From: a virus
Direction: 5' to 3' (one strand)
Virus record (IMG/VR): IMGVR_UViG_3300002307_000008
Coordinates: 1 to 39,940 of that record
DNA length: 39,940 bases
Each line of letters starts with the position of its first letter. Position 1 is the first letter of the stretch. The notes beneath the pieces are model-generated. The model was not told the DNA's origin and did no database searches. It worked only from the letters and a program-made list of their open reading frames with translations. Below are positions 1,672-15,740 of this stretch, piece after piece. Made by a program: the position numbers and the translations under genes.

Positions 1672-1898
1672 TGAGCAAAGGAACCTACTTCCAGGAAATC
1701 CTGGTCACGAAAGAGCAGCTCGCTCTCGACCTGCTCGAAGCCATCCGCTCAGGAATCCGAGGCAAGGTTTTCCACGGCGGGACCCATAGCGACGTAGAAG
1801 ACCTGAACCGCGTGCTCAGCATGCTCTTGGACGTCAAGAACGCGCTGACTCCTGACCCTGCTCCTGCCCCTAAGACTTTCCGAGAGGTGAACGCCTGA
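1671..1898 (+). CDS. Hypothetical protein (75 aa)
   Basis: Track ORF 1662..1898. The ATG at 1671 is coupled to the upstream stop, and TGATG couples it to the next gene. Confidence 0.5.
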   Translation: MSKGTYFQEILVTKEQLALDLLEAIRSGIRGKVFHGGTHSDVEDLNRVLSMLLDVKNALTPDPAPAPKTFREVNA

Positions 1899-2692: not shown

Positions 2693-2910
2693 TGCAATCG
2701 ACAACGGAAACTCTCCTGGTCACCGTCGTCAAACGCGGCCCGTACAGCCTGATCGTCACCCCACGAATCGACCGCAGAGGTTTCGTCCTCGCGGTCACCG
2801 GCCCGGACGGAATCAAATCCGCCCGGCGCCGCCGGCCCTTCGAAACTCGCCACCACGCCCTCAAAACGGGCCTCCGAATTCTCCAAACCAGCGCAGGTGA
2901 TCTCTCATGA
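2692..2910 (+). CDS. Hypothetical protein (72 aa)
   Basis: Track ORF 2686..2910. The ATG at 2692 overlaps the upstream TGA. Confidence 0.45.
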   Translation: MQSTTETLLVTVVKRGPYSLIVTPRIDRRGFVLAVTGPDGIKSARRRRPFETRHHALKTGLRILQTSAGDLS

Positions 2911-3449: not shown

Positions 3450-3547
3450 ACGGTCGTATCAACTTCGAGAACGTGTTCTATCTCACGTTCGGCCCGCTCG
3501 TAATCGTCGCCGGCGCAGTCATCTGCTGGGTGGTGGAGCGATCGTGA
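3446..3547 (+). CDS. Small hydrophobic protein (33 aa, one TM-like segment)
   Basis: Translation is MNGRINFENVFYLTFGPLVIVAGAVICWVVERS. ATGA overlap upstream and GTGA overlap downstream. Confidence 0.35.
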   Translation: MNGRINFENVFYLTFGPLVIVAGAVICWVVERS

Positions 3548-3711
3548 ACTTCGCGCCAGCCTGCTTCCACCGTGCCGCCGAGCGCGATCGCCTCATCCGC
3601 GCGAAGACGGTTACGTCGCTGCTGATCGTCACCGTCCTCCTGACAGGAATTGCGTATCGAACTTGCAGCCAGAACCCGGTCAGCTCGACGAACGCTCAGG
3701 AGGCCCGATGA
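3544..3711 (+). CDS. Small membrane protein (55 aa, one TM-like segment)
   Basis: GTG start. The hydrophobic segment is SLLIVTVLLTGIAY. The stop overlaps the next ATG. Confidence 0.35.
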   Translation: MNFAPACFHRAAERDRLIRAKTVTSLLIVTVLLTGIAYRTCSQNPVSSTNAQEAR

Positions 3712-3920
3712 GCGCAGTCGCTGGCCGAATCGCCGAGACCTACGCCGACCTCAGCACGGCTGAGGTCGTCGGCCAACAGCAGGTCGCACTCAAACGCCTC
3801 GAGGAGGCCCGACTGGAGTGGAGCAACTGGCACGAACGACTACTGACCATCGACACCGTTCTCCGGACCCGACCCGAATACGAAATCGACCAAGCGCGAA
3901 AGGAGCGCCAACCGAAATGA
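3708..3920 (+). CDS. Hypothetical protein (70 aa)
   Basis: ATG at 3708 is preceded by AGGAGG. It lies within track ORF 3663..3920. Confidence 0.55.
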   Translation: MSAVAGRIAETYADLSTAEVVGQQQVALKRLEEARLEWSNWHERLLTIDTVLRTRPEYEIDQARKERQPK

Positions 3921-5413
3921 ACGAACTATTCCTACAGATTCCCCTGTCGTCAATCTCTGAATCTCCGTCGAACCCGCGCAAAACCTACAGCGACTCAGCC
4001 CTCGACGAATTGGCCAGCTCGATCCAGGCGCACGGCGTTCTGCAACCGTTGCTGGTGCGACCGATCGGAAATGATCCGCACGACAACGCATACGAAGTCG
4101 TGTTTGGCCATCGACGACTTCGAGCGGCGGAACGCGCCGGCATTCCAAACGTGCCCTGTCGGATCCGCGAAATGTCGGACGACGAGGTCCTCGAGTGCCA
4201 GATCATCGAGAACGCGCAGCGCGAGGATGTCCATCCTCACGAGGAGGCACTCGGCTACAAGCAGCTCATCGATCGCGGAATGTACGACATCGACCAGATC
4301 GCGGTCAAAGTCGGCAAGTCCGCCAAGCTCGATCCGGAGGTAGCGACGAAACTCCGAGACGCCGGCGCCGCGATCGACAGCCTGGAGCGAATTGCGGCCC
4401 TCAATCCCGATGATCAGCTGGCGATGTGCAATTGGATCATCACTGCACATTGGGGCACACCTAATGCTTCGGAGGTCCGGCGTCAAATCGAAAACGCCTT
4501 TGTGCTTCGGCTCGACGACGCAGCGTTTAACCCGAAGGATGCAAAGCTGGTCGCCTCGGCTGGGTCCTGCGTCGGCTGCGTGTTCAACACTGCGTCACAG
4601 GCTGACATCTTCGCTGATGGTGAATCAGACAAGAAGCAGGGCCGCTGCCTCAACAAGCCGTGCTTCACGACCAAAACGAACGCCCACATCGAAGCGGTCC
4701 GCGCAACGGCCGTTAAGAAGTACGGCGAAGTGACAAACCTATCGATTCAACATGCCGAATCGAAGGTCGGGCTGCCTTCAAAGAACTGGACTGCATGCGA
4801 TGCCGATGATCCAGAGGCCAAGCCGGGAATGATCGTCGAACATTGGCGAGGATCCGAGATTGGCAAGATCGTCCATTTCAAACCGACTGTGGCGATTCGC
4901 ACGACCGAGACCGGGGCGAGCATTCCAGAAGATCGAACGGCCCGACTCGAGCAGCTCCGCGGATACAAGATCGAGACGACATTCCGACGTGCGGTTTTCG
5001 ACGCCTGCCTCGTCTGCTTCCCGATCGAGCCTGACGCGAAGTTCATCACTGAGTTCCTTCGAGTCGCCGTCGCCCAGGCCGTGGTCAGCCCATCGTACAA
5101 CCCGTACGACTCCAAGGACGCTGCGAAGCATCCAGGACTGCAGCCAGCGAAGGAACTGCTTGGCATCGCGAAGGAAGGTAGTCGCGAACTCAATCTGACT
5201 AAGGCGGCAATTGGAGACGTGTCGACCAGTCTCAAGGCTCTGTTCATCTTGGCCACCAAATCCGAGATCGCGAACAACGATAACTGGCAGAAACACACAC
5301 CGTTCGTCTTGATGCACACGGCCGCGTTGTGCAATGTCGACGTCGAGATGCTGAGGAAGGAAGCCGAGGCCAAGTTCGCTCCAAAGGCCAAGAAAGGCAA
5401 GGCGGCAGCGTGA
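3917..5413 (+). CDS. ParB/Srx N-terminal domain protein with a Cys-rich central region (ICE/plasmid ParB-like)
   Basis: ParB-N motifs are present: ISESPSNPRK, GVLQPLLVRP, VVFGHRRLRAAERAG and IIENAQRED. A later segment reads GSCVGCVFNT..GRCLNKPCF. The ATG at 3917 overlaps the upstream stop. Confidence 0.75.
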   Translation: MNELFLQIPLSSISESPSNPRKTYSDSALDELASSIQAHGVLQPLLVRPIGNDPHDNAYEVVFGHRRLRAAERAGIPNVPCRIREMSDDEVLECQIIENAQREDVHPHEEALGYKQLIDRGMYDIDQIAVKVGKSAKLDPEVATKLRDAGAAIDSLERIAALNPDDQLAMCNWIITAHWGTPNASEVRRQIENAFVLRLDDAAFNPKDAKLVASAGSCVGCVFNTASQADIFADGESDKKQGRCLNKPCFTTKTNAHIEAVRATAVKKYGEVTNLSIQHAESKVGLPSKNWTACDADDPEAKPGMIVEHWRGSEIGKIVHFKPTVAIRTTETGASIPEDRTARLEQLRGYKIETTFRRAVFDACLVCFPIEPDAKFITEFLRVAVAQAVVSPSYNPYDSKDAAKHPGLQPAKELLGIAKEGSRELNLTKAAIGDVSTSLKALFILATKSEIANNDNWQKHTPFVLMHTAALCNVDVEMLRKEAEAKFAPKAKKGKAAA

Positions 5414-5703
5414 AAGTCACGACGTACGACGGCGAAGGCTACGCGACCGACATTGAAGTCGGTCCGATCAATGTCGAGCTAGATCAGTCGAACATGCTCC
5501 AACCTCGCGAGCTGTTCCTCGCCCAGGGGTTCAGACCAAGCTACATCATCGACCGAGGAGCAGACGGCAAACCGCTCACCAAAACCGAGCAGGTGCGAAT
5601 GGTCGGCAACTCGGTGTCTCCGCCACCGGCCAGAGCGCTGCTTCTCGCCAACCTGCAAAGTATGGTCGCTCGCAACGACATGCGCAAGGCGGTGGTCGCA
5701 TGA
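5410..5703 (+). CDS. Stand-alone C-terminal fragment of a DNA (cytosine-5) methyltransferase (motifs IX-X only)
   Basis: MLQPRELFLAQGFRPSYII resembles (T)PRE..RLQGFP. VRMVGNSVSPPPARALL resembles motif X (Q.GN.V.PP.A). Motifs I, IV (PC) and VI (ENV) appear nowhere in the window. GTG at 5410 overlaps the ParB stop. Confidence 0.6.
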   Translation: MKVTTYDGEGYATDIEVGPINVELDQSNMLQPRELFLAQGFRPSYIIDRGADGKPLTKTEQVRMVGNSVSPPPARALLLANLQSMVARNDMRKAVVA

Positions 5704-6353
5704 AAGAGCGACCAATTCTATTCTCCGGGCCGATGGTCCGCGCGATTCTCGAAGGTCGCAAGACACAGACGCGGCGCGTTGTGAAGTGCCCAGGCTTAAC
5801 GACTGAGTGTGAGTTTGACCCATTTGGCGGGAGCGGGACACTGGAAGACTTTGACGCGGTTTTCTACACTCCAGAACGGAGCGGCAATCGGTTTGCGGTC
5901 AATTGTCCTTACGGTCAAGTCGGCGACCGGCTGTGGGTGAAAGAGACATTCACGCTCACTCAATTTGGAAAGGCGGTCTATCGCGCCGACGCGAAGGACC
6001 AGACGGGACAACGATGGTCGAGCATCGCGCCTGGTGATCCCGGCCGCGAAGTCAAATGGAAGCCCTCGATATTTATGCCAAGGACGGCGTCACGAATCAC
6101 GCTTGAAATCGTGAGTGTTTGCATCGAGCGGTTGCAGGACATCAGCGTGGAGGACGCCTTCGCGGAAGGCGTATGCGCGTTGCCGATTGAACGTGCGTTG
6201 TCGATCAGCAACCAATATGCAACGGATAACGCTGATGCGGCCATTGAGAAGTATCAGACGGTGTGGGAGTCAATCAACGGCACTAAAGGCGCGAAGTCGT
6301 GGAACGCTAACCCGTGGGTTTGGGTGGTCGAGTTTAAGGTGGTGGCCACGTGA
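5700..6353 (+). CDS. ASCH-domain-like protein
   Basis: The N-terminus PILFSGPMVRAILEGRKTQTRR matches the ASCH G-x-K-x-x-[ET]-x-R signature. Also present are GDRLWVKETF and WKPSIFMPRTASRITLEIVSVCIERLQDIS. Confidence 0.55.
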   Translation: MKERPILFSGPMVRAILEGRKTQTRRVVKCPGLTTECEFDPFGGSGTLEDFDAVFYTPERSGNRFAVNCPYGQVGDRLWVKETFTLTQFGKAVYRADAKDQTGQRWSSIAPGDPGREVKWKPSIFMPRTASRITLEIVSVCIERLQDISVEDAFAEGVCALPIERALSISNQYATDNADAAIEKYQTVWESINGTKGAKSWNANPWVWVVEFKVVAT

Positions 6354-6988
6354 GCGATTCTAAGTGGACCGAGAAGCGGATCCGGCGCATTGTGGCCAGC
6401 CACTACGGCGTGAACAAAAACACGATCTTGCCCAATTACGCGATCGGCACGACTGGATTCGAGGCCGACCTGCTCGTTATTCGACCGTCGATGTGGGCCG
6501 AAGAGATCGAGATCAAATGCTCGGTCGAAGACTTCCGAGCGGAGTTCAAATCGAAGTGCCGAAAGCATCGGATCCTCGTCGAGGGCAAGCCGGTGTGGCG
6601 ACGACAGCCTCACTACATCCGAGACCATACTCCTGACCAGTGGAAAGAGTGGGACGAAGCCCTAGCGAGAGATAACTATGATGACGCGAGAACCGATAGT
6701 CGAGGCAGCGTCTTCGCAATGGATGACTGGTCACAGCCGAAAAAGCACACCTGCAAGAAGTTCTGGTTCGCAGCTCCGCTCGAAATCGCTGAGAAGATCA
6801 AAGAGCAAGTCCCTGACCACGCGGGCCTGTATGCGATCAGCAAAGCCTGTTTCGGCCACGACGTCCGAATTCTCAAAGAAGCACCCGTCCTCAAGATGGC
6901 TCAGAAGGTCGACGAGAAGATGATGCAGCACGTCCTCCAGTGCGCCTACTACCGATTCTGGGACAGCGAACGAAAGGAGGCCGCGTGA
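6350..6988 (+). CDS. PD-(D/E)xK nuclease-fold protein, MmcB-like
   Basis: GFEADLLVI...EEIEIKCSVEDFRAEFKSK gives the D...E-x-K pattern. The later KKFWFAAPLEIAEKI..GLYAI matches the MmcB family pattern as I recall it. Confidence 0.55.
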   Translation: MSDSKWTEKRIRRIVASHYGVNKNTILPNYAIGTTGFEADLLVIRPSMWAEEIEIKCSVEDFRAEFKSKCRKHRILVEGKPVWRRQPHYIRDHTPDQWKEWDEALARDNYDDARTDSRGSVFAMDDWSQPKKHTCKKFWFAAPLEIAEKIKEQVPDHAGLYAISKACFGHDVRILKEAPVLKMAQKVDEKMMQHVLQCAYYRFWDSERKEAA

Positions 6989-7296
6989 AGCAATCTGTCA
7001 CCTATTCGATCTCGATCGACGCTGACTACAAGCCACTGAAATATTGGTCTGACACATGGGCGATTCCCATCACGACGATCCGAACGTGGATCCAAAACGG
7101 CAAGTGCCCGGCCAAGTTGATCGGTGGCCAATATATGATTTCGCAGCTCGAACTGTTAAACTGGACACCTCCAGAAAGCGAAAAGGACGGTCATGGCGAG
7201 AGCGAAGGGCGAGGGGACGTACGAAAGAAGAAAGAGCGACCTGCAATATCGGTTCGTGCTTCAAGCGGACAAAAAACGTCTCGTTGGCCCGTTTAA
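6985..7296 (+). CDS. Excisionase-family HTH protein
   Basis: WAIPITTIRTWIQNGKCPAKLIGGQYMISQLELLNW resembles the MerR/excisionase HTH. GTG at 6985 overlaps the upstream stop. The low-complexity tail overlaps the integrase start by 104 nt. Confidence 0.5.
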   Translation: MKQSVTYSISIDADYKPLKYWSDTWAIPITTIRTWIQNGKCPAKLIGGQYMISQLELLNWTPPESEKDGHGESEGRGDVRKKKERPAISVRASSGQKTSRWPV

Positions 7297-8341
7297 GCCG
7301 ACCAAATCCGAAGCGCTCAAAGCGTGGAAGGAAAAGCAGAAACAACCACCCAAGTCGAAACCGAAATCCGCTGATCCATTCTCCCAACCTGATCGAGTCT
7401 GCATCGGCGATGAGATTTACTGGTGCTTGTTTGGCGTTTGGGACAGTCCGGACGGCGAACGACCAACAACCAAGGGTATCTGGGCCGACGAGCTCGCTCC
7501 AACCACCTACCAGCTCTATTTCGACGCATTCAAAGCGCGGATCCGCCACGACCCGATCGCGCTCATGGATCCCGCTGAAGTCGACGTGCGCGACCTCGAG
7601 TCGTTCCGATCGCGGCTACTGCACACACCATCGAGCTACACGCGAAAGCTAAAAACCAAAAAGCCCGACGGATCGATCGAAGTAAAAGACCTGATCGTCG
7701 AGCGCCCTCCTCTCAACGGCCGCTCGGTCATGCGGTACATGACGCCCGTCTTCAAAGTGTTAAAGCGGCATCGAAACCTCTGCTACCGCGAATTGGGAAC
7801 GCTGAAACTCAACCCGCCGAAGAAAGCCTGGCTCACCCATTCCGACCGTGACGCGTTCCTGGCCCTCATGAACTCGCCAATGCTCCGTAGAGCGGCCCTG
7901 TTGATGATGCACGGCATGTCGATCGGAGAAGTGTGTAAAGTGACGTCCGACGCGTTTGACGGCCACACAATCGAAATCTCGGAGCAAACGAGCATGATCG
8001 GCGGAAAGGCGGTCGACCGTGGCCAACTCAAGCGAGCACGAAGGTATCGCAAATTGCCGGCAAATCGCTTGCTGAAACAAGAACTGGCTGGTGTCACAGG
8101 CCGCCTCGTCGACTTCATTCCGTCATCGCTTCGGCGGGCGATCGAGCGAAAGGTTGCCGGCACGAAATTCGAAAACATTGGACCGCACGACCTGCGAAGA
8201 TCCGGAGGAAAGTGGATGCTCGACGCCGGCGCGAAACTCAGCGACGTGGCGGCCATTCTCGGCAATGATCCACGGACGCTCTTGGTCTGGTACGACACCT
8301 CAGACGCCGAAGGAAAAGCGAGAGCGATCGAGGCGGTCTAA
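7193..8341 (+). CDS. int: Tyrosine recombinase (phage integrase)
   Basis: The C-terminal catalytic pattern is HDLRRSGGKWML...LGNDPRTLLVWYD (H-x-x-R ... Y). The N-terminal arm-binding-like segment is GTYERRKSDLQYRF..FKPTKSEALKAW. It is adjacent to a tRNA-derived core. Confidence 0.85.
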   Translation: MARAKGEGTYERRKSDLQYRFVLQADKKRLVGPFKPTKSEALKAWKEKQKQPPKSKPKSADPFSQPDRVCIGDEIYWCLFGVWDSPDGERPTTKGIWADELAPTTYQLYFDAFKARIRHDPIALMDPAEVDVRDLESFRSRLLHTPSSYTRKLKTKKPDGSIEVKDLIVERPPLNGRSVMRYMTPVFKVLKRHRNLCYRELGTLKLNPPKKAWLTHSDRDAFLALMNSPMLRRAALLMMHGMSIGEVCKVTSDAFDGHTIEISEQTSMIGGKAVDRGQLKRARRYRKLPANRLLKQELAGVTGRLVDFIPSSLRRAIERKVAGTKFENIGPHDLRRSGGKWMLDAGAKLSDVAAILGNDPRTLLVWYDTSDAEGKARAIEAV

Positions 8342-8373: not shown

Positions 8374-8430
8374 GTTTCGTCGCAAGATGCCGGAATTTCG
8401 TCGGCAGTTCTGAACCGTAGGTTCAAAAAA

Positions 8431-8475
8431 TGGAGCCTTCGACGAGAATCGAACCCGTGACCTCTTCTTTACCAA
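8431..8475 (-). other. attP core: 3' 45 nt of a tRNA-Thr(GGU), from the anticodon loop to CCA
   Basis: The minus strand reads TTGGTAA-AGAAG-AGGTC-ACGGG-TTCGATT-CTCGT-CGAAGGC-T-CCA. That is the anticodon loop with GGT, the 3' anticodon stem, variable loop, full T arm, 3' acceptor strand and CCA. Upstream sequence does not pair as a 5' anticodon stem, and there is no D arm. Confidence 0.75.
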
Positions 8476-8556: not shown

Positions 8557-8793
8557 ATGCACGGATGGCAACCGATCAACGCCCAACTCCGAGGCTATCG
8601 AGGCCAAACGCTTCGAGCTTTGGCACGTCAAACCGAGACTGGTTTCCAGGTCACGGCGTTCCGAGAACGGCACAATCCGCCGGCGTTGATCGGCGTCGGA
8701 TCCACACTGAATCTCGCGATCGCAGACTTCGAACGACGCGTCGTCGAGATCGAGGAACAGATCGACTACCTATGTACGCATCGCGCGGCGTGA
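8557..8793 (+). CDS. Possible small XRE-type HTH protein (78 aa)
   Basis: The internal ATG of track ORF 8521..8793 is used, because the longer start would run through the arm repeats. LRGYRGQTLRALARQTETGFQVTAFRERHNPP resembles an XRE HTH. No clear RBS. Confidence 0.35.
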   Translation: MHGWQPINAQLRGYRGQTLRALARQTETGFQVTAFRERHNPPALIGVGSTLNLAIADFERRVVEIEEQIDYLCTHRAA

Positions 8794-9006
8794 GCCTGGC
8801 CGCGTTTTGTTCTGAACGACCGCACCCGGCGTCGCACCACTGAGACCAACCGGTCGCAACGACTCCGGACGATTCCCGTTCGGTTCAGGCTGGCGAATCA
8901 CGCCCTGAGGTGCCCTCGTGAGCCTCGCATATTGTGCAAGCGCGAGAGCCATGATGAAGTCGTCGTGATGGCCCGCAGCGGCCTCCGCGCGTTGCTTGTC
9001 GCCCAC
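8770..9006 (-). pseudogene. Possible decayed remnant resembling the extreme C-terminus of a terminase large subunit
   Basis: Only GHHDDFIMALALAQYARL looks protein-like, resembling the hDD..DAlalA end of TerL nuclease domains. The rest is low complexity. It lies downstream of the operon terminator and has a GTG start. Confidence 0.2.
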
Positions 9007-9130
9007 CGCTTGATCAACGCAAAACCGCGCGAGTGCAGATCGTGCTAACTCCCGCCCAAGCCGAGAAGTTCAAGTCCCTTGGCGGCTCTCGGTGGGTTCA
9101 AAAGCAGATCGAAAACGCCTGATCCACGCA

Positions 9131-9163
9131 CAAAAAAGACGCCCCCAGCACGAGGCTGAGGGC
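9131..9163 (-). terminator. Intrinsic terminator ending the long minus-strand late/accessory operon
   Basis: The minus strand reads GCCCTCAGC-CTCGT-GCTGGGGGC-GTC-TTTTTT. The stem pairs at 8 of 9 positions, followed by a T6 run, 21 nt after the stop at 9185. Confidence 0.75.
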
Positions 9164-9184
9164 GATTGTAAACGTAACGGCGGA

Positions 9185-9565
9185 TTAGGTTGTCAATTGG
9201 ACTTCTTCGATCATTCGAGGCATTACGCTAATGTCGATGTACGGGTGCGGAAGGCCGAGCCGCTCGAAATAGATCGAATAGGCTAGTCGGCCATGCGGCT
9301 TCTTGGTGCTTCGAACTTGATGCCGGTTATCTCGATCGAAAACGAGCAGCCCGAACTTGTCGGCCATCGTATTGACGAGTTCGTCGGGTTCACACGCTTC
9401 GTTTGTCCACGGGATTGCGACGACATCAAAGTCCCGATAGAGCGATCCGTGAACCGCAAGGCAGTAACCAAGGCCGTTTGCGACTTCGACAAGGCCAGGT
9501 AGCACCAGGGAGTACATCGCTGCCCGCACTGGATGACGCTGAGCGTCTTTGTCGTTCACGTCCAT
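9185..9565 (-). CDS. Small protein with a minimal pol-beta-type nucleotidyltransferase-like motif pattern (126 aa)
   Basis: YCLAVHGSLYRDFDVVAIPW gives hG[GS]...D-x-D after a helix, and PYIDISVMP gives a later acidic strand. The call rests on motif spacing only. Confidence 0.35.
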   Translation of the reverse strand: MDVNDKDAQRHPVRAAMYSLVLPGLVEVANGLGYCLAVHGSLYRDFDVVAIPWTNEACEPDELVNTMADKFGLLVFDRDNRHQVRSTKKPHGRLAYSIYFERLGLPHPYIDISVMPRMIEEVQLTT

Positions 9566-9566
9566 G

Positions 9567-9875
9567 TTAAAGCTCCATCGGGTTATCCATGTCGGTCATG
9601 GGCACGATTTGTGCTGCAAGCGAGTGGCTGCAATCCGAAAGGAATTCGATCCGGCCCGACTGTACGTACAGGTGGCACGAGCCCGGATACAGTAGTGACG
9701 GTTCGAACGTCGGCGCGTCCATGTTGCCGTCAAATTTCCAAACAGGATCGTTCGGGAACCGCCGGTCTCTCGGATCGTGATCGATCGACAAAATGTGCGA
9801 GCATTCGCAGCCCGGACAAAAGAACCGCCACCCGAGCAGTTTTCCGTCAAGGGTAAACGGTTTCAGCTTTGACAT
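9567..9875 (-). CDS. DUF6527-like Zn-binding protein (102 aa)
   Basis: FFCPGCECSH...WKFDGNMDAPTFEPSLL...CHLYVQSGRIEFLSDCSHSLAAQIVPM matches the CPGC...W.FNGD..PT..PS...CH.f...G.I.FL.DC.H.LAGQ pattern as I recall it. Confidence 0.55.
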   Translation of the reverse strand: MSKLKPFTLDGKLLGWRFFCPGCECSHILSIDHDPRDRRFPNDPVWKFDGNMDAPTFEPSLLYPGSCHLYVQSGRIEFLSDCSHSLAAQIVPMTDMDNPMEL

Positions 9876-9884
9876 CGTAGCCGC

Positions 9885-10406
9885 CTAGTGAGGGTAGCCA
9901 GTCGGGCACGGGAACCGCTTCAAGTACTCCGCGACCCAATCGAGCAGAATTGCCCGCTGCGCCTGGGCAAGCGTGAGCTGTCCGGCCATCACTTCTCGGT
10001 GCAGCCGGTTCTCGAGCTTGTCCTTGTCGTGGGCGTTCCAAGGCCCTTCGTATGATTCGCACCACAGATTCGCAGGATCCGAGCCACAGCCGATCTCGAT
10101 CGAGCACGCGTGGTCGACTTCGAACGGCACACCTCCGCGCGCAAAATGATCGCGCTTGACCACTGCGTTGATCATCGCCTTGGTCGCCGACTGCCGATAC
10201 AGTTTGGTCGTAAATCCCGGCTGTTTCATCGCCTCGAGTGTGATGCGCGGATCCACAACGCCAAGCACGACTCGCGGCGGCAGATACTTGCCGTATGGCG
10301 CGGAATACGGCCGGTGAGCCGCTTCGTCGGGCGTCAGGATGTACTGAGGCGTCCGCCCGCCAAATCCAAGGCAGAGCAGAGAGACGAGAATCAGCAGTCG
10401 TTTCAT
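9885..10406 (-). CDS. Signal-peptide-bearing HNH (beta-beta-alpha-Me) nuclease
   Basis: The N-terminus MKRLLILVSLLCLGFGG looks like a signal peptide. The core is FEVDHACSIEIGCGSDPANLWCE...WNAHDKDKLENRLHREV (D-H ... N ... H). Confidence 0.6.
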   Translation of the reverse strand: MKRLLILVSLLCLGFGGRTPQYILTPDEAAHRPYSAPYGKYLPPRVVLGVVDPRITLEAMKQPGFTTKLYRQSATKAMINAVVKRDHFARGGVPFEVDHACSIEIGCGSDPANLWCESYEGPWNAHDKDKLENRLHREVMAGQLTLAQAQRAILLDWVAEYLKRFPCPTGYPH

Positions 10407-10723
10407 GCCTGATTATCCTCCGTTTCGCTCTCAGCTGCAAGAGCAGCCTCCGCCTCCGAAAACGCCTTCGACACGTCCGCCGGAACGCCCTTGATCGTTA
10501 CAAAGTCGATGCCCTCGACGCCGCCATCCTGGAATCGCCCGTCAGGGACGTCCGTGTACGGGCACATAGGATACAAGCCGCGCTGATTGAGCGCGATTCG
10601 TGTGGTCGGCGCGGCGCCCAGAGGTGGGTTTAGATCGCCGGGCAACAGCGAGAAGATTTGATCTTTGGCGAGCATAATCGCCGTTCCGTCTGACTGGGTG
10701 AAGGTTGCTTGGCTTGCTTGCAT
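10403..10723 (-). CDS. Hypothetical protein (106 aa)
   Basis: This is the protein-like C-terminal part of track ORF 10403..11254, starting at the ATG at 10723 (MQASQATFTQSDG...FVTIKGVPADVSKAF...). ATGA couples it to the HNH gene. It overlaps the SGNH ORF tail out of frame. Confidence 0.45.
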   Translation of the reverse strand: MQASQATFTQSDGTAIMLAKDQIFSLLPGDLNPPLGAAPTTRIALNQRGLYPMCPYTDVPDGRFQDGGVEGIDFVTIKGVPADVSKAFSEAEAALAAESETEDNQA

Positions 10724-11990
10724 AGGTTCTGTTCCGTTGGAAGATCTCGGGGCGCACGACGTGCGCGGTGTAGATGGCCGTGTTGGCCGTGGTAGTGCCG
10801 TGAAGCCCGTCCGTGCGGGCGAAGTAATTTGCCGTGCCGTTCGCGACCCACTTGCTGGATGTCTTGCCCGACTCGGTAACGCTGGCGATGTCGAAAAACG
10901 CGGTCGCTTTCTCGACATACTGCGCCCTGACGCTGGCGTTGAACGACGATCGATAACTGTTCTTGGTGCTGTCGAAAACCGTCTGGTTGAGCGTCGTCGC
11001 CCAGTTGTCGGTCGACGTGGTGTATGGCGAGATCGAGCAGATCGCGTAGTCGTATGGATGACCGCTCTGTGTAGCGAACTTGAGCGAGTTGTAGACCGTC
11101 GTGAGCGACGCCCGGAACTGGGTGTCGTTGACGCCGCCGCCGTTGAAGTCGTTGATGCCGACGTCGATGACGAGGTCGGTGCAGTACTTCGCAATCTCCT
11201 TCCGAAGCGTCGATGTTGACGTGCCGTTGTTCCAGAGGTAACAAGCTTCGCCACCCATGCCGGCGTTTACAAACGGAACGCCCCACGCGCTCATCGTCGG
11301 CGCCACTTCGCCGTCTTCGTTGTAGATTGGTGCGAAGCCAGTAGAGTTGGAACCACGGAGCCGCGAGTCACCCCAAGCGAAAACGCCTCTCGTGCGCGTC
11401 TTGGCGACAATCGCCATCGGGCCGAGTGTTAAGTTGTGCTGAGTCGCCGGCGAGCCGCCGAGCGTGATGTCCGGAATTGCTCCGGACGCTCCGTAGTCAC
11501 TCCACTCGCCGAGGTTCGTCCGGTTGTACGTCCCTCCAAACAAAACGCCGGCCGTAGCGGAATTGCTCGAATGAGTCCATGTGCGCGTGTAGCCGAGCTG
11601 GTGATTTCGCCACTTGATCCCGATCCAGTCCGACCAAGCCATCTGGCCGCCCGAAAGCGTCTTCGTTGCCGATCCGGACCAAGTGACCTGCGAGAACGTG
11701 CCGTCGTAGTTCTCGATCCCCATGCGGAAATCGCGAGTGCCAGGACACGCTAGTTCGAGCTGGTAGACGTTCGCAATCAGGACCTTGACCGCGACGACAT
11801 CATCACAAACCCGGTGGGCCTTGCGGTGGATGCTGTCCTGGATGCCGGTCGTGATCGTGTTCCACGTCTGGGTGGAAGCAACAACGCCCTCGTGCAAAGG
11901 AGCCGTTGTTTGCGCCGGCGTCGGCATCTTCCCGGTGATTATTACCAAGGCAAGCAGCGCAAGCTTTAGGTATTTCAGAAGGTGTTTCAT
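10542..11990 (-). CDS. SGNH/GDSL-family hydrolase with N-terminal signal peptide
   Basis: The N-terminus is MKHLLKYLKLALLALVIITG. Block I is FAWGDSRLRG, block III is DVGINDF and block V is TDGLHGT. The last ~60 codons are Arg-rich and overlap the next ORF. Confidence 0.7.
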   Translation of the reverse strand: MKHLLKYLKLALLALVIITGKMPTPAQTTAPLHEGVVASTQTWNTITTGIQDSIHRKAHRVCDDVVAVKVLIANVYQLELACPGTRDFRMGIENYDGTFSQVTWSGSATKTLSGGQMAWSDWIGIKWRNHQLGYTRTWTHSSNSATAGVLFGGTYNRTNLGEWSDYGASGAIPDITLGGSPATQHNLTLGPMAIVAKTRTRGVFAWGDSRLRGSNSTGFAPIYNEDGEVAPTMSAWGVPFVNAGMGGEACYLWNNGTSTSTLRKEIAKYCTDLVIDVGINDFNGGGVNDTQFRASLTTVYNSLKFATQSGHPYDYAICSISPYTTSTDNWATTLNQTVFDSTKNSYRSSFNASVRAQYVEKATAFFDIASVTESGKTSSKWVANGTANYFARTDGLHGTTTANTAIYTAHVVRPEIFQRNRTYASKPSNLHPVRRNGDYARQRSNLLAVARRSKPTSGRRADHTNRAQSARLVSYVPVHGRP

Positions 11991-11992
11991 GG

Positions 11993-12718
11993 TTAGTTAG
12001 AAAGTGCGAATGCAGCCCAGGCGAAGGTTTCGGCGGAGCCCGGCGTGTAGGCGTCGCCCGCACTCTGGTAGCCGTAGATCTTCTGGCCAGAGGCAAGAAT
12101 CGCGTTGATGACCGCGCCGTTGTCGGGAATTCCGATCGCGACCGCGCCATCGGTGCAAACCTGCCAGTTCGTGACCGTCACCGACCCCAGGTAATTCGCG
12201 CCGGTGCTTGGCACAAACGTGCCCGCGTCGCCGTTGGCCACGCCCGGGTCGGCGGAAAATAGCGAAAGCTTGAACGTCGCGTTGGTGATCCCGGTGCCCG
12301 ACTTGAAGCACCGAAACGCAAAGACCTGAGCCCCGCCGCCAGACGATTTCGCGACCTGAAATTGCAATGCTGGACAAGATCCCGCCGTCGCACTCGGCCC
12401 CATCATCTGGCCAATGGAGTAAGCCGTCGTGTTTGCAAGCCGGGTCCACGTGGCGGCCGCTGCGAGTACGTACTGTCGGTAAATCGCCTTCAGCAGCGAA
12501 ATGACCGACCACGAAGACGTGTTATCCGTCGCCGCACCGTCCGCCTTCGCGCCCTGGGTGACGTCGGCCCCGTCTGCGATGGTCGCCGCTCCGCCTCCGC
12601 CGCCTCCGCCCGATTGGTAAACGTCAAGCGCGAAAGTCCCGTCGCCTTTGTCGTGCATGTTCTGGCGGATCTCAACGTTGTTGAGAATGTCGTGAACTGT
12701 ATATTGCTTGTCTGCCAT
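11993..12718 (-). CDS. Hypothetical protein with a Gly7 hinge (tail fibre or receptor-binding-like; function unknown)
   Basis: 241-aa ORF with AAGGA RBS immediately after the internal terminator. SGGGGGGGAAT follows a short N-terminal domain. Confidence 0.5.
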   Translation of the reverse strand: MADKQYTVHDILNNVEIRQNMHDKGDGTFALDVYQSGGGGGGGAATIADGADVTQGAKADGAATDNTSSWSVISLLKAIYRQYVLAAAATWTRLANTTAYSIGQMMGPSATAGSCPALQFQVAKSSGGGAQVFAFRCFKSGTGITNATFKLSLFSADPGVANGDAGTFVPSTGANYLGSVTVTNWQVCTDGAVAIGIPDNGAVINAILASGQKIYGYQSAGDAYTPGSAETFAWAAFALSN

Positions 12719-12737
12719 GTGTCTAGATCCTTAAATG

Positions 12738-12762
12738 AAAAACCCCCAGCGCGAAGCTGAGG
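12738..12762 (-). terminator. Internal intrinsic terminator between the tail genes and the accessory cassette
   Basis: The minus strand reads CCTCAGC-TTCGC-GCTGGGGG-TTTTT. Its core CCCCCAGC-N5-GCTGAGG is shared with the terminator at 9141..9163. Confidence 0.55.
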
Positions 12763-12789: not shown

Positions 12790-13113
12790 TTAGGTTGACC
12801 AGGATTGACCGAGGTCGGTTGAATACAAAAGTGTCGGCGTCGTATCGCCCGCTAGAATCGGAGCGATGACCCAGCGGGCTTCCCAGTCGCACGCAAAATC
12901 GACGTTGCACCATCCGTTGTCAGCGATTGAGTACGCGGTGCCCGCACCGTTTTGAAGGTTGACAGTCGATGACCATGTACCCCAAGACAACGTTGGCGAC
13001 ATTGTCGCGAGCTTGATTTTGCCGACCCCGGAAGTTCCAGAGTCATATTCAAACCAGCAGTCCACCCAATAGCCATCGGGCGAAGCCTGAATAGACCTTC
13101 CGTATTGAGCCAT
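12790..13113 (-). CDS. Small tail-associated protein ending in a BNR/Asp-box (107 aa)
   Basis: The ATG at 13113 overlaps the upstream stop (TAATG). The C-terminal STDLGQSW matches S-x-D-x-G-x-[TS]-W. Confidence 0.5.
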   Translation of the reverse strand: MAQYGRSIQASPDGYWVDCWFEYDSGTSGVGKIKLATMSPTLSWGTWSSTVNLQNGAGTAYSIADNGWCNVDFACDWEARWVIAPILAGDTTPTLLYSTDLGQSWST

Positions 13114-15740
13114 TAGACTGGAGCGCTCCACGTCTGGCCAAAGTCGTCAGACGAAATCGTGTAGCCCGTGGGAGTTCCCGAAATGTTCCGAACAAGCGCA
13201 CCGAGAATTCGCCCGGTGAATTCATCGCGGTCAAACCGAAAACTCAAAACGTCGCCGACAGTGGTGGCAACAACTTCCCAGTCCCATCCGAGCGCGTTCC
13301 AACTGTGGCGGCAGAACTTGAATTGAGCGTCCCCGTTGGCGACGTAGCCAAGCGCAAGTGATCCGTCTTTCCACTCGCGCACCCACGGAAGACCAGTCGT
13401 TTGATCGTGCCGAAACGAAGCTCGAAGCCGCCGCCGATTCGCCGCATCTGAGGTTGACCAATCGGCGTAGATTGCGGTCGTGATCTGCGACCGATGAAGC
13501 GTGTGGCCGAATCCGTATTCGATGCCTGTCCGGTAAAAACCGACGCCGTCGGCTGTTCCGTTCCCGCGGTTGGCCATTGAAGGCCGCTCGAGCAGCGCAA
13601 CCACCGCGCCCGTGTTGACCGCGCCGCCTGACTTGAACACTTCACCATCGCCAGCAACGCGCAGAAACTTCGTGAACCGAATCGGCGTGTAACCGCCGTA
13701 ACTCGTTTGCTCCCATGGGTCGCCGCACTGAGGGTAGCCCTGAACCTCGTCCCACAGATCCTGAGCGGCGACAGTCAGCGACGTCGCATCCTTGTCGACC
13801 CCGTCGGTCCAGTTTCCGCCCTGATAGATCGCGCCGTTTCCGAAGGCATTGAACCCAGGAAGCGCCGTGGTGTGGTATCCGTCGGTTGGCGGAGTGATCG
13901 CCGTTGCTGACCACCCAGGCAAATAATTGATACAGTTGATCAGGTCGCCAAGCGATTGCATTTGATAGTACGCCGCGCCGCTGAAAGGCACGACGTGAGC
14001 AGATCCAGGCCAGTCGGCCACTCGCTTGCCGTCGGATTCGAGCTGAATCGCTTGCTGCAAATATGTGTTGTCGCTCGCAGATTGCCATCCCGTCTGCCAA
14101 TAGTTAAACGGAGTCAAGAATGTCGCTTTTGCGTCGACCTGACGGATGATGTTCAGCGACCCCATGTGCAACGTCGTTGTTGCCGGGACGCCCGATATTG
14201 ACGCCGTTCGCGCGTCGAGAACTCCCCAGTACGCACCCTTTTCCGGGTCCGCCATGGTCGTCTCGTCTGGATAGCTCGAGGTCGGCGAAGATCCGGTTGC
14301 GTGCAGCGGGAATCGGCTTTGCCTGTCGTCAACGTCTGGAAGAGTGTAGCCGACTGTCGTTGGCGAGCAGAGGTCAATCGTGATCGTCTGCGAAGTTCCC
14401 GGAGTCGCCACCGTCCAATCGAACGACTTCGTCCCGACCGTCAGCGTTCCCGGCTGATCGGCCGTAAACTGCGCGTAGCGGAAACCTTCCCACACGGTTT
14501 CAAGCAGAGTGATCGACCCGCCCGGCGATGCGTAATTGTGAGACGCCGCGACAACCTTCGATGCGACTTGAGCAAGGGTGAAGCAGTTCCACGGCTTGCC
14601 GCGCATCTGGCATCGTTGGTCTCTCGAATCCTCGTGCTGGGATGACAGCGAAGGCTCGCCACCCGTCGAAGATGCTTTCAGCCAAACCCTCTGCGCGAGC
14701 CACTCGTTTACTCCACCTGTCCCGATCGTAGACCCGTCGACCGTGCCCGATGCGGCCCAGTTGAGCTGCGTAACCTGTGCGGTGCCCGTCGGATTGAGCA
14801 GCACGTCGACGATATTCGTCGCGCCGTCGAGTTTGTATTGCCACTGAGCGGTAAGTCCTGGGGACGGATACGCCGTGCCAAAACGCCGAAGCCTGCCCTC
14901 AAGCTGGAACTTGATTGGCGGGTTTACAAGCGTGTCGCAGATCGCCGTGTGTGGCGCGCTTGGATCGCTGTAGGTCTCACTGTAGGTTCCAATGTCCGCC
15001 CGAATCCGGCCCCATGTCGATGAATGATCGAAAACTATTCCCGCGTCCATGTTGACGCCATTCATGTTCGCGGTGATGAGCGTCGAGTTGCCCATTTGCT
15101 TGGATTCGGTGATCGCTTTTCGCTCAATCAGATAGCCCGGGGATCCGGTGTTCCCAGCCGTAACAAGCACATGGCACGAAGCGGTCACTCCGGCTTCGGT
15201 AAAAGACACCGAGACCGTCGTGCCGACCTTAAGCGCCTCATAGAACTCGGCACCCTTGCCGAACATTCCGTCCTTGTAGCTCGCGCCGTCGACAAGCGGA
15301 TAATTGTCCGCGTCGTTGTCGCTGAGGTCGTAGACGTAGCACCACTCCTCGACCGTCATCGTGATCGAGTAAGACCCGCTGATGTCGCGATTGTATGAGC
15401 CGCCAGGCGATGACCAAACATCATCGACGTACGTCGTCGCGTAGGTGACATCCGTGCCGGTGAAGCTCGGGATGTCCATCCACAGTTCAATCGTGCGACG
15501 ATTCTGAGCCGTGGTCGGAGGCGAAGCGCAGTTCAGAGACGCCGGGATGATCGCTGAATCCGAATCCGACATGTGGCAGATGCCCGGAAACTCGATGTAA
15601 ACGTTCGACGCGTGTTGATTGACGACGTAGCCGCCTAATCGCGTGGCCGAGTGACAGCCAGTCTGAGCGCCGACCGAGCCGGAAATGTTGCCATCGAACA
15701 CGATCGTGCGGGATCGTCCGGTCTTGAATGGGTTCGCCAT
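13113..15740 (-). CDS. Large tail fibre or host-specificity protein (875 aa) ending in a BNR/Asp-box
   Basis: Long ORF in the tail module. The C-terminal SDDFGQTW is a perfect Asp-box. I recognise no other domain. Confidence 0.6.
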   Translation of the reverse strand: MANPFKTGRSRTIVFDGNISGSVGAQTGCHSATRLGGYVVNQHASNVYIEFPGICHMSDSDSAIIPASLNCASPPTTAQNRRTIELWMDIPSFTGTDVTYATTYVDDVWSSPGGSYNRDISGSYSITMTVEEWCYVYDLSDNDADNYPLVDGASYKDGMFGKGAEFYEALKVGTTVSVSFTEAGVTASCHVLVTAGNTGSPGYLIERKAITESKQMGNSTLITANMNGVNMDAGIVFDHSSTWGRIRADIGTYSETYSDPSAPHTAICDTLVNPPIKFQLEGRLRRFGTAYPSPGLTAQWQYKLDGATNIVDVLLNPTGTAQVTQLNWAASGTVDGSTIGTGGVNEWLAQRVWLKASSTGGEPSLSSQHEDSRDQRCQMRGKPWNCFTLAQVASKVVAASHNYASPGGSITLLETVWEGFRYAQFTADQPGTLTVGTKSFDWTVATPGTSQTITIDLCSPTTVGYTLPDVDDRQSRFPLHATGSSPTSSYPDETTMADPEKGAYWGVLDARTASISGVPATTTLHMGSLNIIRQVDAKATFLTPFNYWQTGWQSASDNTYLQQAIQLESDGKRVADWPGSAHVVPFSGAAYYQMQSLGDLINCINYLPGWSATAITPPTDGYHTTALPGFNAFGNGAIYQGGNWTDGVDKDATSLTVAAQDLWDEVQGYPQCGDPWEQTSYGGYTPIRFTKFLRVAGDGEVFKSGGAVNTGAVVALLERPSMANRGNGTADGVGFYRTGIEYGFGHTLHRSQITTAIYADWSTSDAANRRRLRASFRHDQTTGLPWVREWKDGSLALGYVANGDAQFKFCRHSWNALGWDWEVVATTVGDVLSFRFDRDEFTGRILGALVRNISGTPTGYTISSDDFGQTWSAPV

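Follow-up and report, generated by a model that had tools for sequence, protein, structure and literature searches.

Six genes beside the attachment site of an Armatimonadota phage form a probable patchwork of three accessory modules

Results

The window, by which we mean the whole 39,940-nucleotide stretch analysed, is a complete circular genome of 39.9 kb whose ends overlap by 47 bp, and is that of a complete circular temperate phage of Armatimonadota. Its minus strand encodes, in order, terminase, portal, protease, major capsid protein, head-tail adaptor, a tape-measure-like protein and tail proteins of 906 and 875 aa, followed by a block of six further genes. The first-pass annotation had placed this block in the interval between tail end and att, and there it is, as the last part of the late operon, ~0.7 kb from attP, the attP core sitting 656 nt past the terminator T2, a correction to the earlier placing. 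The features of the region are as follows.

12734..12762, minus strand: T1, a weak intrinsic-terminator-like hairpin (hairpin 12744-12762; 7 bp with one G-U, plus U5)
11993..12718, minus strand: Gly7-hinge protein, 241 aa (36-residue N-terminal segment, Gly7 hinge, C-terminal domain of ~150 aa)
10542..11990, minus strand: SGNH esterase, 482 aa (functional part residues 1-419; N-terminal leader MKHLLKYLKLALLALVIITGKMPTPA)
10403..10723, minus strand: acidic orphan protein, 106 aa (its frame is the coding one within the SGNH overlap)
9885..10406, minus strand: His-Me-finger (HNH) nuclease-like protein, 173 aa, putatively exported (N-terminal hydrophobic leader)
9567..9875, minus strand: DUF6527/BubE-family protein, 102 aa (Pfam DUF6527, 36.5 bits against a cut-off of 23.6)
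9185..9565, minus strand: minimal Pol-beta-fold nucleotidyltransferase (NTase), 126 aa (HGS..RDxD...D111)
9131..9164, minus strand: T2, a strong intrinsic terminator closing the late operon (hairpin 9140-9164 plus U-tract; 10-bp G+C-rich stem, U6)
8424..8475, minus strand: attP core, the 3' 45-52 nt of tRNA-Thr(GGT) of Armatimonadota (Fimbriimonadales, Chthonomonas)
7193..8341, plus strand: putative integrase, 382-aa ORF (from the first-pass call and its location 83 nt from the attP core)

All six proposed ORFs exist and are coding by codon statistics; they are packed tightly, with intergenic gaps of 1-9 nt or overlaps, all six genes are translationally coupled, and the block shows no compositional break. 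The earlier description of a terminator-delimited block stands at its downstream end, where T2 has a folding energy of -27.9 kcal/mol (z -4.1) and a stem nearly the same as that of T1, but not at its upstream end, where T1 in its context folds no better than shuffled sequence (z 0.05). The two share CCTCAGCyTCGyGCTGGGG, of which the window holds no third copy, and T1 is a shortened, weak copy of T2. Across the region, terminator-like sites (10 found, 8.0 expected) and promoter-like matches (2 found, 2.0 expected) both occur at chance. T1 lies only 25 nt upstream of the first ATG of the block, the start codon of the Gly7 protein, and the block therefore has no room for a promoter of its own; this spacing, together with the translational coupling, means that it is not an autonomous promoter-plus-terminator moron. 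An internal promoter, non-sigma-70 or too weak for our scan, could still drive the block in lysogens, and T1 might terminate efficiently in vivo, leaving the block poorly expressed late.

The first gene encodes seven consecutive glycines (residues 37-43) in a protein with no match in Pfam, PHROG, PDB or phage records; it is the partner of the SGNH esterase that follows. The esterase matches phrog_8480 at 1e-23 (Pfam GDSL_2 reaches only E=0.01, under its cut-off), its catalytic tetrad is intact, and the family alignment shows no variation in the GDS, G, N and DxxH blocks, while identity to any isolated phage is only 25-28%. Its ORF extends 182 nt into the 106-aa gene; the tail is non-coding by codon statistics, the last 63 codons being a non-conserved read-through, and the only close homolog ends at residue 419. 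The pair of Gly protein and esterase is kept in one other lineage (loci L001/L002), with 50% identity for the SGNH protein and 31-33% for the Gly protein, the latter figure relating the Gly7 C-terminal domain to a Gly5 protein encoded ahead of the SGNH homolog of L001. In that locus the pair begins 1 nt after the preceding gene, leaving therefore no terminator space, the esterase is leaderless, and a transmembrane holin-like protein is encoded downstream of it.

The SGNH N-terminus is K/R-rich and continues with 11-12 hydrophobic residues, the first 21 codons being arranged as the n-, h- and c-regions of a Sec leader. A Sec- or Tat-type leader, placed as here directly before the conserved mature N-terminus, occurs in about 5 of 61 relatives; these features, with the family match and invariant blocks, agree with the first-pass call of an esterase with a predicted leader. 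That most relatives have none suggests that cytoplasmic or virion-borne action is the norm for the family. In Gordonia phages, relatives bear the annotation minor tail protein; others follow the major capsid gene in L037-L042, lie between endolysin and integrase in Shewanella QDWS and Rhizobium RHph_N2, and in a T7-like phage fall between TerS and TerL.

Such placements in head and tail modules raise the alternative that the first two genes are virion parts, a Gly-hinged side fibre and a tail-borne, receptor-deacetylating esterase, with the hydrophobic N-terminus either an anchor or untranslated, given that an alternative start at Met22 would drop the leader. Several relatives themselves bear a poly-Gly hinge (G5 or G7) after a short N-terminal peptide, and the close homolog P0002 is leaderless and aligns from query residue 30. 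There is precedent in tail-spike SGNH esterases that deacetylate O-antigen, such as G7C gp63.1. We nevertheless consider this reading unlikely: the first ATG abuts the preceding stop (TAA-CC-ATG), as at all other block junctions, whereas starting at Met22 would open a gap of 65 nt, atypical of the block; the 21 codons in question are laid out as a Sec leader; and leader-bearing variants recur in the family.

Of the 106-aa ORF, a public gene call takes just the last 54 aa. The neighbouring nuclease-like protein contains the motif ExDH...N...NAHxKD and belongs to a family of 9,035 cluster representatives (E<=1e-3), with members in phages, T4-like ones among them, and in bacterial DNA; among 100 sampled relatives, Endonuclea_NS_2 is matched by 23, HNH by 14 and HNH_5 by 9, and the family profile matches the Cas8f-HNH domain (E 0.012). 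Its N-terminus, too, is K/R-rich with 11-12 hydrophobic residues following, and a hydrophobic leader is present in 85 of the 100 relatives, 13 of them with a lipobox, so that the earlier identification of an HNH nuclease with a putative signal peptide gains support from both motif and family.

The last two genes were likewise well named in the first-pass annotation. The Zn protein scores above the Pfam cut-off for DUF6527, and its relatives in phages all keep the CPGC motif, Ser60 (in a PS motif) and His68. For the NTase, an AlphaFold model (pLDDT 82.8) finds the palm of Pol lambda/beta/mu in Foldseek with probability 1.0 (TM 0.58-0.60), and the residues G40, D45, D47 and D111 are invariant, pointing to a predicted Pol-beta-type fold. 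That the two belong together, as had been proposed, is borne out by four other phage loci (L085, L133, L161 and L111) in which their genes are directly adjacent, the sole DUF6527 matches in ~0.9 Mb of NTase loci, with zero in control loci; the adjacency is a minority arrangement, found in 4 of 88 NTase loci and 1 of 80 DUF6527 loci. Endolysin genes adjoin three of the four pairs, and the NTase gene on its own separates endolysin from holin in L071 and flanks the endolysin gene of PaBG. Members of either family are also common among virulent phages (early regions of Ackermannviridae, 9NA, and jumbo phages of Caulobacter, Vibrio and Pseudomonas).

Since Pfam, PHROGs and NCBIfam reveal no recognisable endolysin across the whole genome, a cryptic lysis role of the block stays a live rival. 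The block would then be or contain unrecognised lysis or release machinery, the exported SGNH and HNH-like proteins attacking the envelope from the periplasm and the DUF6527/NTase pair serving as a lysis-associated accessory. The end of a late operon before att is a canonical spot for lysis genes, and the endolysin- and holin-adjacent NTase genes (L071, L085, L133, L161, PaBG), the SGNH relatives beside endolysins or among late genes, and the holin-like protein after the L001 esterase are all consistent with it, as is the precedent of lipolytic LysB enzymes, bona fide lysis proteins of mycobacteriophages. We still regard it as doubtful: all six proteins lack a muralytic domain and transmembrane holin topology, neither an SGNH esterase nor a nuclease could cut peptidoglycan at its glycan or peptide bonds, a leader is missing from most SGNH relatives, and holin-like small membrane proteins map away from the block, to 31978-32471, upstream of the gene for the small terminase.

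The first-pass annotation had instead proposed a single lysogen-expressed superinfection-exclusion or defence island, with an envelope arm (glycan de-O-acylase and periplasmic nuclease) and a cytoplasmic arm (Zn protein and NTase). In its favour, lysogenic-conversion genes are classically found next to att, leaders are present on two of the proteins, the block is preceded by a terminator-like hairpin, DUF6527 belongs to the Bub operons, proposed to act in antiphage immunity, and a periplasmic nuclease and receptor de-acylation would be plausible exclusion mechanisms. Two of the searches suggested to check the idea speak against it. PADLOC returned no match for any of the six proteins, and the six families are not found together in other genomes: the 57 SGNH loci contain no relatives of Gly7 (at those loci), of orf106, or of the HNH, DUF6527 and NTase proteins, and HNH, SGNH and Gly7 relatives are absent from all 88 NTase and 80 DUF6527 loci. 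Nor does the window encode any E1, E2 or Ubl protein with which the DUF6527 protein could pair. With DUF6527 and NTase relatives common in virulent phages, the L001 pair lacking terminator space and its esterase a leader, no space for a promoter after T1 and promoter matches at chance, one such system appears improbable; moreover, the integrated block would face outward to the host junction, so that no host promoter should read it in sense.

Discussion

The anatomy of the genes, their family assignments, the conserved catalytic residues, the record of which families do and do not co-occur, and the absence of space for a promoter together favour reading the block as a promoter-less, late-transcribed patchwork of three evolutionarily independent accessory modules rather than as one system, to which we assign a probability of roughly 0.55; expression timing, export and all substrates we infer. 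As the distal end of a long minus-strand late operon running from terminase through head and tail, the block would be entered by read-through of the weak T1, and transcription would stop at the strong T2, presumably late in infection.

The first module would be the Gly-hinge protein with a predicted active SGNH esterase, from a family otherwise found, mostly leaderless, in structural and late modules of many phages. Here the enzyme appears, judged by its sequence features, to have gained a Sec-type leader and is most likely exported, probably stripping O-acyl groups from an envelope glycan or lipid near the time of release; were it to de-O-acylate the envelope, the receptor would be destroyed or modified. 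The second would join the orphan 106-aa protein to a predicted secreted HNH nuclease, of a very large family of small leader-bearing nucleases, whose most likely substrate is DNA outside the cytoplasm, be it superinfecting, lysis-released or matrix DNA. The third would be a cytoplasmic pair, a DUF6527/BubE-like Zn-binding putative Ser/His protease and a minimal nucleotidyltransferase, recurring at the lysis-gene or att end of other phages and probably acting late in infection on host or phage proteins.

Moron and lysogenic-conversion clusters between tail genes and att resemble the block in position, mosaic make-up and distal terminator, and also in cargo: a His-Me-finger-type nuclease that is secreted and an esterase acting on envelope glycan or lipid (export here being predicted). 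Known cargo at such sites includes the secreted DNases Spd1/Sda1 of Streptococcus pyogenes prophages and the O-antigen-modifying genes of Salmonella and Shigella phages. By contrast, our block has no promoter of its own in the 25 nt between T1 and ATG and is translationally coupled into the late operon; two of its families are typical of virulent phages, and its link to lysogeny is putative.

With the esterases of phrog_8480 ('lysophospholipase L1-like esterase'; 'minor tail protein' in Gordonia phages), the SGNH protein shares an N-terminal domain of ~170 aa, the SGNH domain, the invariant catalytic blocks and encoding in a late module, but the usual N-terminus is replaced here by a Sec-type leader and the Gly hinge resides on a separate upstream protein. 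Like mycobacteriophage LysB, it is a phage esterase near lysis genes that could attack an outer envelope layer, though its putative lysis role would be played by an SGNH fold, not the cutinase-like alpha/beta-hydrolase fold of LysB.

Minimal nucleotidyltransferases of the Pol-beta superfamily include the MNT antitoxins of HEPN-MNT modules. The phage NTase is like them in its ~120 aa size, alpha-beta-alpha-beta core and hG[GS]...DxD...D signature, but has no HEPN partner and no sequence match to MNT families (Pfam, NCBIfam), its nearest folds being family-X polymerase palm domains.

DUF6527 is BubE of bacterial Bub ubiquitination-like operons, for which a Ser/His catalytic dyad has been described (bioRxiv 10.1101/2024.11.21.623953). 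The phage protein differs from BubE in lacking a hydrophobic extension, in keeping the Cys ligands only partly (CxxC plus one Cys or Trp), and in standing alone, with the NTase as partner in place of E1, E2 or Ubl genes. It is alike in its above-threshold Pfam match and Cys-rich Zn motif, and its invariant Ser and His could form the BubE dyad; a module of BubE-like protease and tiny nucleotidyltransferase, recurrent in other phages, merits follow-up.

A complete temperate phage of Armatimonadota

Bases 1-47 and 39894-39940 of the window are identical, and the 47 bp common to both ends indicate a complete circular assembly of ~39.9 kb, laid out as follows:

647-8341, plus strand: CI-like repressor, Gam-like protein, ParB/methyltransferase-like genes and a 382-aa ORF, taken as the putative integrase from the first-pass call and its position
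8424-8475: attachment site (attP)
~39.6 kb down to 9185, minus strand: a single long array that runs from an FtsK-like ATPase, a primosomal-like protein and small membrane proteins through small and large terminase, portal, protease, major capsid protein, head-tail adaptor and tape-measure-like protein to tail proteins of 906 and 875 aa, a small Asp-box protein and, at its end, the six-gene block

The attP assignment rests on the 98-100% identity of 8424-8475 to the 3' 45-52 nt of tRNA-Thr(GGT) genes, on a 32-nt core found in eight genomes, all eight of them Armatimonadota MAGs (Fimbriimonadales, Chthonomonas), and on the absence of a complete tRNA from the window; together these identify a temperate phage of Armatimonadota. 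The 8 kb fetched from each of the eight genomes contained no related prophage. We know of no cultured phage for this phylum, and most genes of the present one have few or no relatives. Two short frames lie between attP and T2, the terminator that closes the block:

8770-9006, minus strand: short ORF containing 'GHHDDFIMALALAQY', like the C-terminal end of large terminases; by this resemblance it may be a recombination relic
8955-9122, plus strand: frame ending '...RVQIVLTPAQAEKFKSLGGSRWVQKQIENA', ribbon-helix-helix-like in look, without an obvious start

At the end of the tail module, the 875-aa protein (13113-15740, minus strand) and the next small ORF (12790-13131, minus strand), which most likely begins at an ATG overlapping the previous stop by one base, carry C-terminal Asp-box (BNR) motifs ('DDFGQTWSAPV', 'TDLGQSWST').

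The block as the probable distal part of a late operon

The block comprises six genes, all of which are present as the first-pass annotation had placed them:

11993-12718, minus strand: Gly7 protein, 241 aa
10542-11990, minus strand: SGNH protein, 482 aa
10403-10723, minus strand: 106-aa protein
9885-10406, minus strand: HNH-like protein, 173 aa
9567-9875, minus strand: DUF6527 protein, 102 aa
9185-9565, minus strand: nucleotidyltransferase (NTase), 126 aa

They are tightly packed, with gaps of 1-9 nt or overlaps, and the codon statistics of all six resemble those of the phage's confident genes. A recent foreign insertion was rejected, G+C content and codon scores being equal to the rest of the genome; the block has no DNA similarity to 50,697 phage records. 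Its proposed location beside attP is right to within 656 nt.

Terminators had been proposed on both sides of the block. T2 (9131-9164), with a 10-bp stem and six U's, is strong (-27.9 kcal/mol in context, z = -4.1), and the two stems are indeed near-alike, but T1 (~12734-12762), a 7-bp hairpin with one G-U pair and five U's, is weak, its context fold being no better than that of shuffled sequences (z = 0.05). Terminator-like patterns occur in the region at chance frequency (10 observed, 8.0 expected). What makes T1 credible is its identity to T2 at 17/19 stem-loop bases; it looks, on this comparison, like a shortened copy of T2, and the window holds no third copy.

The T1 stem lies just 25 nt from the first ATG, with an AAGGA ribosome-binding site between them, and no room is left for a promoter ahead of the block. 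Because sigma-70-like matches are in addition at chance level (2 observed against 2.0 expected), with none positioned for the first gene, we conclude that the block is not an autonomous unit. A promoter-like site at 12725-12696 was rejected as its driver, since transcription would start inside the first gene and a 9/12 match is at chance frequency. As far as the scan can tell, transcription would come either by read-through from the tail genes alone or from an internal promoter that the scan missed. Morons are defined by their own promoter upstream and their own terminator downstream; the block has T2, but a promoter has no room and none is placed for the first gene. A better candidate for an independently expressed moron lies within the tail module:

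18704-19321, plus strand (opposite to the module): 205-aa ORF with an N-terminal CxxC...CxxC zinc ribbon and hydrophobic transmembrane stretches; no family match

We therefore picture the block as what would be the promoter-less distal part of the late operon. Its coupling to the tail genes leads us to expect late expression, with the weak T1 probably lowering its output relative to the abundant structural proteins.

A Gly-hinge protein paired with a predicted SGNH esterase

The Gly7 protein begins with a 36-residue segment, which seven glycines link to a C-terminal domain. Searches of Pfam, PHROGs, PADLOC, NCBIfam and the PDB, and of 50,697 phage records by tblastn, gave no match to it. Its sole relative, a 187-aa Gly5 protein encoded on the metagenomic contigs L001 and L002 (31-33% identity over the C-terminal 150 residues), likewise lies directly upstream of an SGNH gene. 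In L001 (3311-5072) this pair is followed by a transmembrane (TM) protein and then by converging MazG-like and cytosine-methyltransferase-like genes; the window's four small block genes are absent after the pair in this only related lineage. A 113-aa ORF upstream of T1, considered as kin of the 127-aa ORF upstream of the L001 pair, has no similarity to it.

SGNH/GDSL hydrolases are defined by Ser, Gly, Asn and His catalytic residues in blocks I (GDS), II (G), III (GxND) and V (DxxH). The 482-aa protein has them all: G207-D208-S209, G247, N280 and D394/H397 are invariant in alignment A3, which joins it with homologs from two isolated phages and with P0002, its one relative above 30% identity (50%) among 5.8 billion proteins. 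It falls into phrog_8480 (1e-23) and scores 16.8 bits against Pfam GDSL_2, under the cut-off of 32.9. We assign it to the SGNH/GDSL hydrolases, and the invariance of the GDS, Gly, Asn and Asp-x-x-His blocks makes an active esterase the most likely prediction. PDB sequence searches with the SGNH and Gly7 proteins returned nothing; a profile search from the SGNH side gave a weak match to a CE2 acetyl esterase (E 0.14).

A single-protein scan of IMG/VR found no relatives of the SGNH protein, and a metagenome pattern scan yielded 57 further loci at 22-31% identity. The genomic settings of the family vary: in L037-L042 the gene directly follows the major capsid gene; Gordonia phages have it among their "minor tail proteins"; in two temperate phages, Shewanella QDWS and Rhizobium RHph_N2, it is flanked by endolysin and integrase; and a T7-like phage of Mesorhizobium carries it between the genes for its terminase subunits. 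Most relatives start straight at a conserved "YxGQVATR" motif; three to four bear a poly-Gly hinge on the SGNH protein itself, behind a short N-terminal peptide, and ~5/61 have Sec- or Tat-type leaders. The window's leader (MKHLLKYLK-LALLALVIITG-KMPTPA), which sits immediately before this motif, appears from these comparisons to be a recurring minority variant in a usually leaderless family. Starting at Met22 would drop the leader, but this start is less likely, because the first ATG abuts the previous stop like the other block junctions and Met22 would leave an atypical gap of 65 nt.

The SGNH ORF has no stop at residue 419, where its sole close homolog ends, and runs on into the next gene:

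10542-10723, minus strand: SGNH overhang of 63 Arg-rich codons, 182 nt into the 106-aa gene

Within the overlap the 106-aa frame has a coding score of +0.155 and a GC3 of 0.64, against -0.19 and 0.50, non-coding values, for the SGNH tail. That an independent ENA assembly (L003) gives the identical 482-aa product rules out an assembly error; together with the homolog's end at 419 and the unrelated TM protein that follows in L001, it led us to reject the two ORFs as one frameshift-split gene.

A small leader-bearing HNH-like family

The acidic 106-aa protein is an orphan, with no relatives in Pfam, PHROGs, PADLOC, NCBIfam or phage records (tblastn).

His-Me fingers are recognized by a beta-beta-alpha-metal fold with a D/E-H general base, an Asn and a metal-binding His or Asn. 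The 173-aa protein carries the motif E-x-D-H ... N-L-W ... N-A-H-D-K-D-x-L-E; across its family E96, H99 and N113 never vary, D98 hardly does, and position 125 is H or N. A low-confidence AlphaFold model (pLDDT 64) predicts beta strands at 95-99 and 114-118 and a helix at 125-140, hence a beta-beta-alpha arrangement within 95-140; this model, too poor for a fold search, returned nothing in Foldseek. The protein has no Pfam match of its own and no tblastn match in phage records, and a profile search of 1.84 billion cluster representatives recovered 9,035 relatives at E<=1e-3 (6,195 at E<=1e-10). Among 100 sampled relatives, Pfam matches were to Endonuclea_NS_2 (23), HNH (14) and HNH_5 (9), 85 had a hydrophobic N-terminal leader, 13 of these with a lipobox; a conserved mature N-terminus, 'LPDPxLTPG', characterizes the homologs P0064-P0210. 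Against the PDB, the family profile weakly matches the HNH domain of Cas8f-HNH (E 0.012).

These motifs and relatives put the 173-aa protein in a family of small proteins with leaders, probably His-Me fingers. The family is very large and has no name, nor does Pfam or NCBIfam have a dedicated model for it. It amounts to ~9,000 clusters at 50% identity and is present in very different phages, with members beside a PD-(D/E)XK gene in a T4-like phage, at the tail-module end of another phage and in bacterial DNA. Hydropathy and charge layout of both the SGNH and HNH N-termini fit the n-, h- and c-regions of a Sec signal peptide; conservation of the leader is strong in the HNH family (85/100) and weak in the SGNH family (~5/61).

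A recurrent DUF6527-nucleotidyltransferase pair

Pol-beta-type nucleotidyltransferases are recognized by the NTase fold, hG[GS], DxD and a third acidic residue. The model of the 126-aa protein contains an NTase core (pLDDT 82.8) that Foldseek matches to the palm of Pol lambda, beta, mu and TdT (probability 1.0, TM up to 0.60), and H39-G40, D45, D47, H91-G92-R93 and D111 are invariant in 53 homologs; a PDB sequence search returned nothing. Modelled fold and motif place the protein in the Pol-beta superfamily, with catalysis predicted. Its relatives occur in 42 phage records, many of jumbo lytic phages, and a temperate phage of Klebsiella has one in its nin region. The best homolog (L071, 50% identity) lies between a GH108 endolysin and a holin, without DUF6527, and in Pseudomonas phage PaBG the NTase gene adjoins the endolysin. 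Many enterobacterial-type viral contigs (L115-L137) show another recurrent NTase partner, distinct from DUF6527, in a conserved 91-aa Cys/His-rich protein ('RKLPCIRCGNP...PLCHSCH') that precedes the NTase homolog.

The 102-aa protein scores 36.5 bits against Pfam PF20137 (DUF6527; cut-off 23.6, E 4.6e-9). An alignment of seven diverse phage homologs shows no change at C20, C23, S60 (part of a P-S motif), H68 or G74, whereas three of the seven have Trp in place of C67. DUF6527 relatives were found in 274 phage records, mostly of virulent phages, for example after topoisomerase genes in Ackermannviridae and after the portal gene in 9NA; such stand-alone DUF6527 proteins are widespread in phages, and our literature search on DUF6527 brought up only two works, neither of them on these copies.

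When 88 NTase loci were scanned with a DUF6527 HMM, four matched, every one directly beside the NTase gene, and control loci gave no match; in loci of ~12 kb, four of four immediate neighbours is far from chance. G+C content (58-73%) and sequence vary greatly among the four paired loci:

L085: 4-nt overlap of DUF6527 and NTase; preceded by a phage lysozyme gene, followed by a serine recombinase
L133: DUF6527 and NTase overlap; after a Pfam-confirmed lysozyme, before a weakly matching integrase
L161: DUF6527-NTase gap of 15 nt; GH25 endolysin one gene further on
L111: NTase first, gap of 212 nt to DUF6527

Seen from the DUF6527 side the pairing is rare (1/80 loci), a minority arrangement. DUF6527 is nonetheless repeatedly paired with a minimal nucleotidyltransferase beside lysis genes.

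Probably three modules rather than one system

The components of a single system should co-occur as families in other genomes. Around the 57 SGNH loci (<=9 kb flank, tblastn) there were no relatives of Gly7, the 106-aa protein, HNH, DUF6527, NTase, the tail proteins or the integrase, and no member of the HNH, Gly7 or SGNH families was picked up by HMMs across 88 NTase and 80 DUF6527 loci. Only two pairs recur: Gly-protein with SGNH (L001/L002) and DUF6527 with NTase (L085, L111, L133, L161). Nor did any of the six proteins match PADLOC-DB v2 at E<=1 or anything meaningful in NCBIfam. The first-pass annotation had tentatively read the block as one lysogen-expressed superinfection-exclusion or defence island. 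Its anatomy proves largely as described, and its family calls are good (SGNH esterase, DUF6527, minimal nucleotidyltransferase and, at family level, HNH nuclease with a signal peptide), but the system-level interpretation is unsupported, there being neither a known anti-phage defence system nor a conserved set of six co-occurring families.

A live rival reading, in which part of the block may serve lysis or release, draws on its canonical lysis position, by the repeated occurrence of its families beside endolysins in other phages, and by the lack of any recognized endolysin or muralytic domain in ~45 window ORFs (Pfam, PHROGs or NCBIfam) though the genome is complete; yet the six block proteins themselves have no muralytic domain (Pfam, PHROGs). 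Lysis cassettes combine a holin (a small TM protein) and a muralytic endolysin, with or without spanins, and the block offers no such domain and no TM segment apart from the two leaders. Holin-like small membrane proteins lie elsewhere, at 31978-32471, within a cluster upstream of the small terminase gene; a split lysis system may have its holin and spanin genes here:

31440-32471, minus strand: four small envelope proteins, namely 98 aa with one TM segment; 66 aa with two hydrophobic segments; 59 aa, acidic; 119 aa with a leader or lipobox and a C-terminus (...VSFRF) like that of an outer-membrane beta-barrel
31341-31360: terminator-like site after the cluster

Our preferred reading is a mosaic accessory region of a typical sort, in which three independent modules close the late operon.

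Possible functions and relation to ubiquitin-like systems

The esterase, putatively exported, would remove O-acyl groups from envelope glycan or lipid; the HNH-like protein, as a putative exported nuclease, would attack DNA beyond the cytoplasm. With either activity, progeny could more easily escape from debris and matrix, or superinfecting phages could be excluded. An "envelope arm", as first proposed, is plausible only in this narrow sense, as a lytic-cycle function. The DUF6527/NTase pair would be cytoplasmic.

The name BubE was recently given to the DUF6527 family; in bacterial Bub operons BubE acts as a Zn-dependent protease of the Ser/His type on conjugates of the ubiquitin-like (Ubl) protein BubA. 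The Citrobacter enzyme has an S92/H102 catalytic dyad and a C4 zinc site (C57, C59, C61, C99), and Bil systems are stated to conjugate Ubls to the tail proteins of phages under assembly (bioRxiv 10.1101/2024.11.21.623953). A Ser/His pair is conserved in the phage DUF6527 proteins and is a candidate dyad, the comparison being among phage homologs. Since BubE removes Ubl conjugates and Bil tags tail proteins, a late anti-Bil deconjugase is the most interesting reading that the data allow: DUF6527 protease and minimal NTase would form a counter-defence module, expressed late alongside virion and lysis genes. The protease, acting as BubE does on BubA conjugates, would strip Ubl modifiers put on phage structural proteins by host Bil/Bub-type systems, while the NTase would nucleotidylate, and hence inactivate, a component of the conjugation machinery or the Ubl. 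Occurrence of the pair in five unrelated phages, its lack of E1, E2 and Ubl genes, the invariant Ser and His and the frequency of stand-alone copies in virulent phages are compatible with this module, to which we give a probability of roughly one in eight.

As a six-gene "system" the block matters little, and the analysis averts a spurious defence-island annotation; what is new is not a kind of system but its components: the phage comes from an unstudied phylum, the SGNH protein is a variant with a leader, and the DUF6527-NTase pair is recurrent. Bub operons encode BubE with Ubl, E2 and E1, whereas the window's DUF6527 gene, outside any Bub operon, comes with none of these among the ORFs scanned with Pfam or PHROGs. 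Because BubE is newly shown to be a Ubl-deconjugating protease, the DUF6527-NTase pair offers a concrete candidate, open to experiment, for the way in which phages might answer antiviral conjugation of the ubiquitin-like kind.
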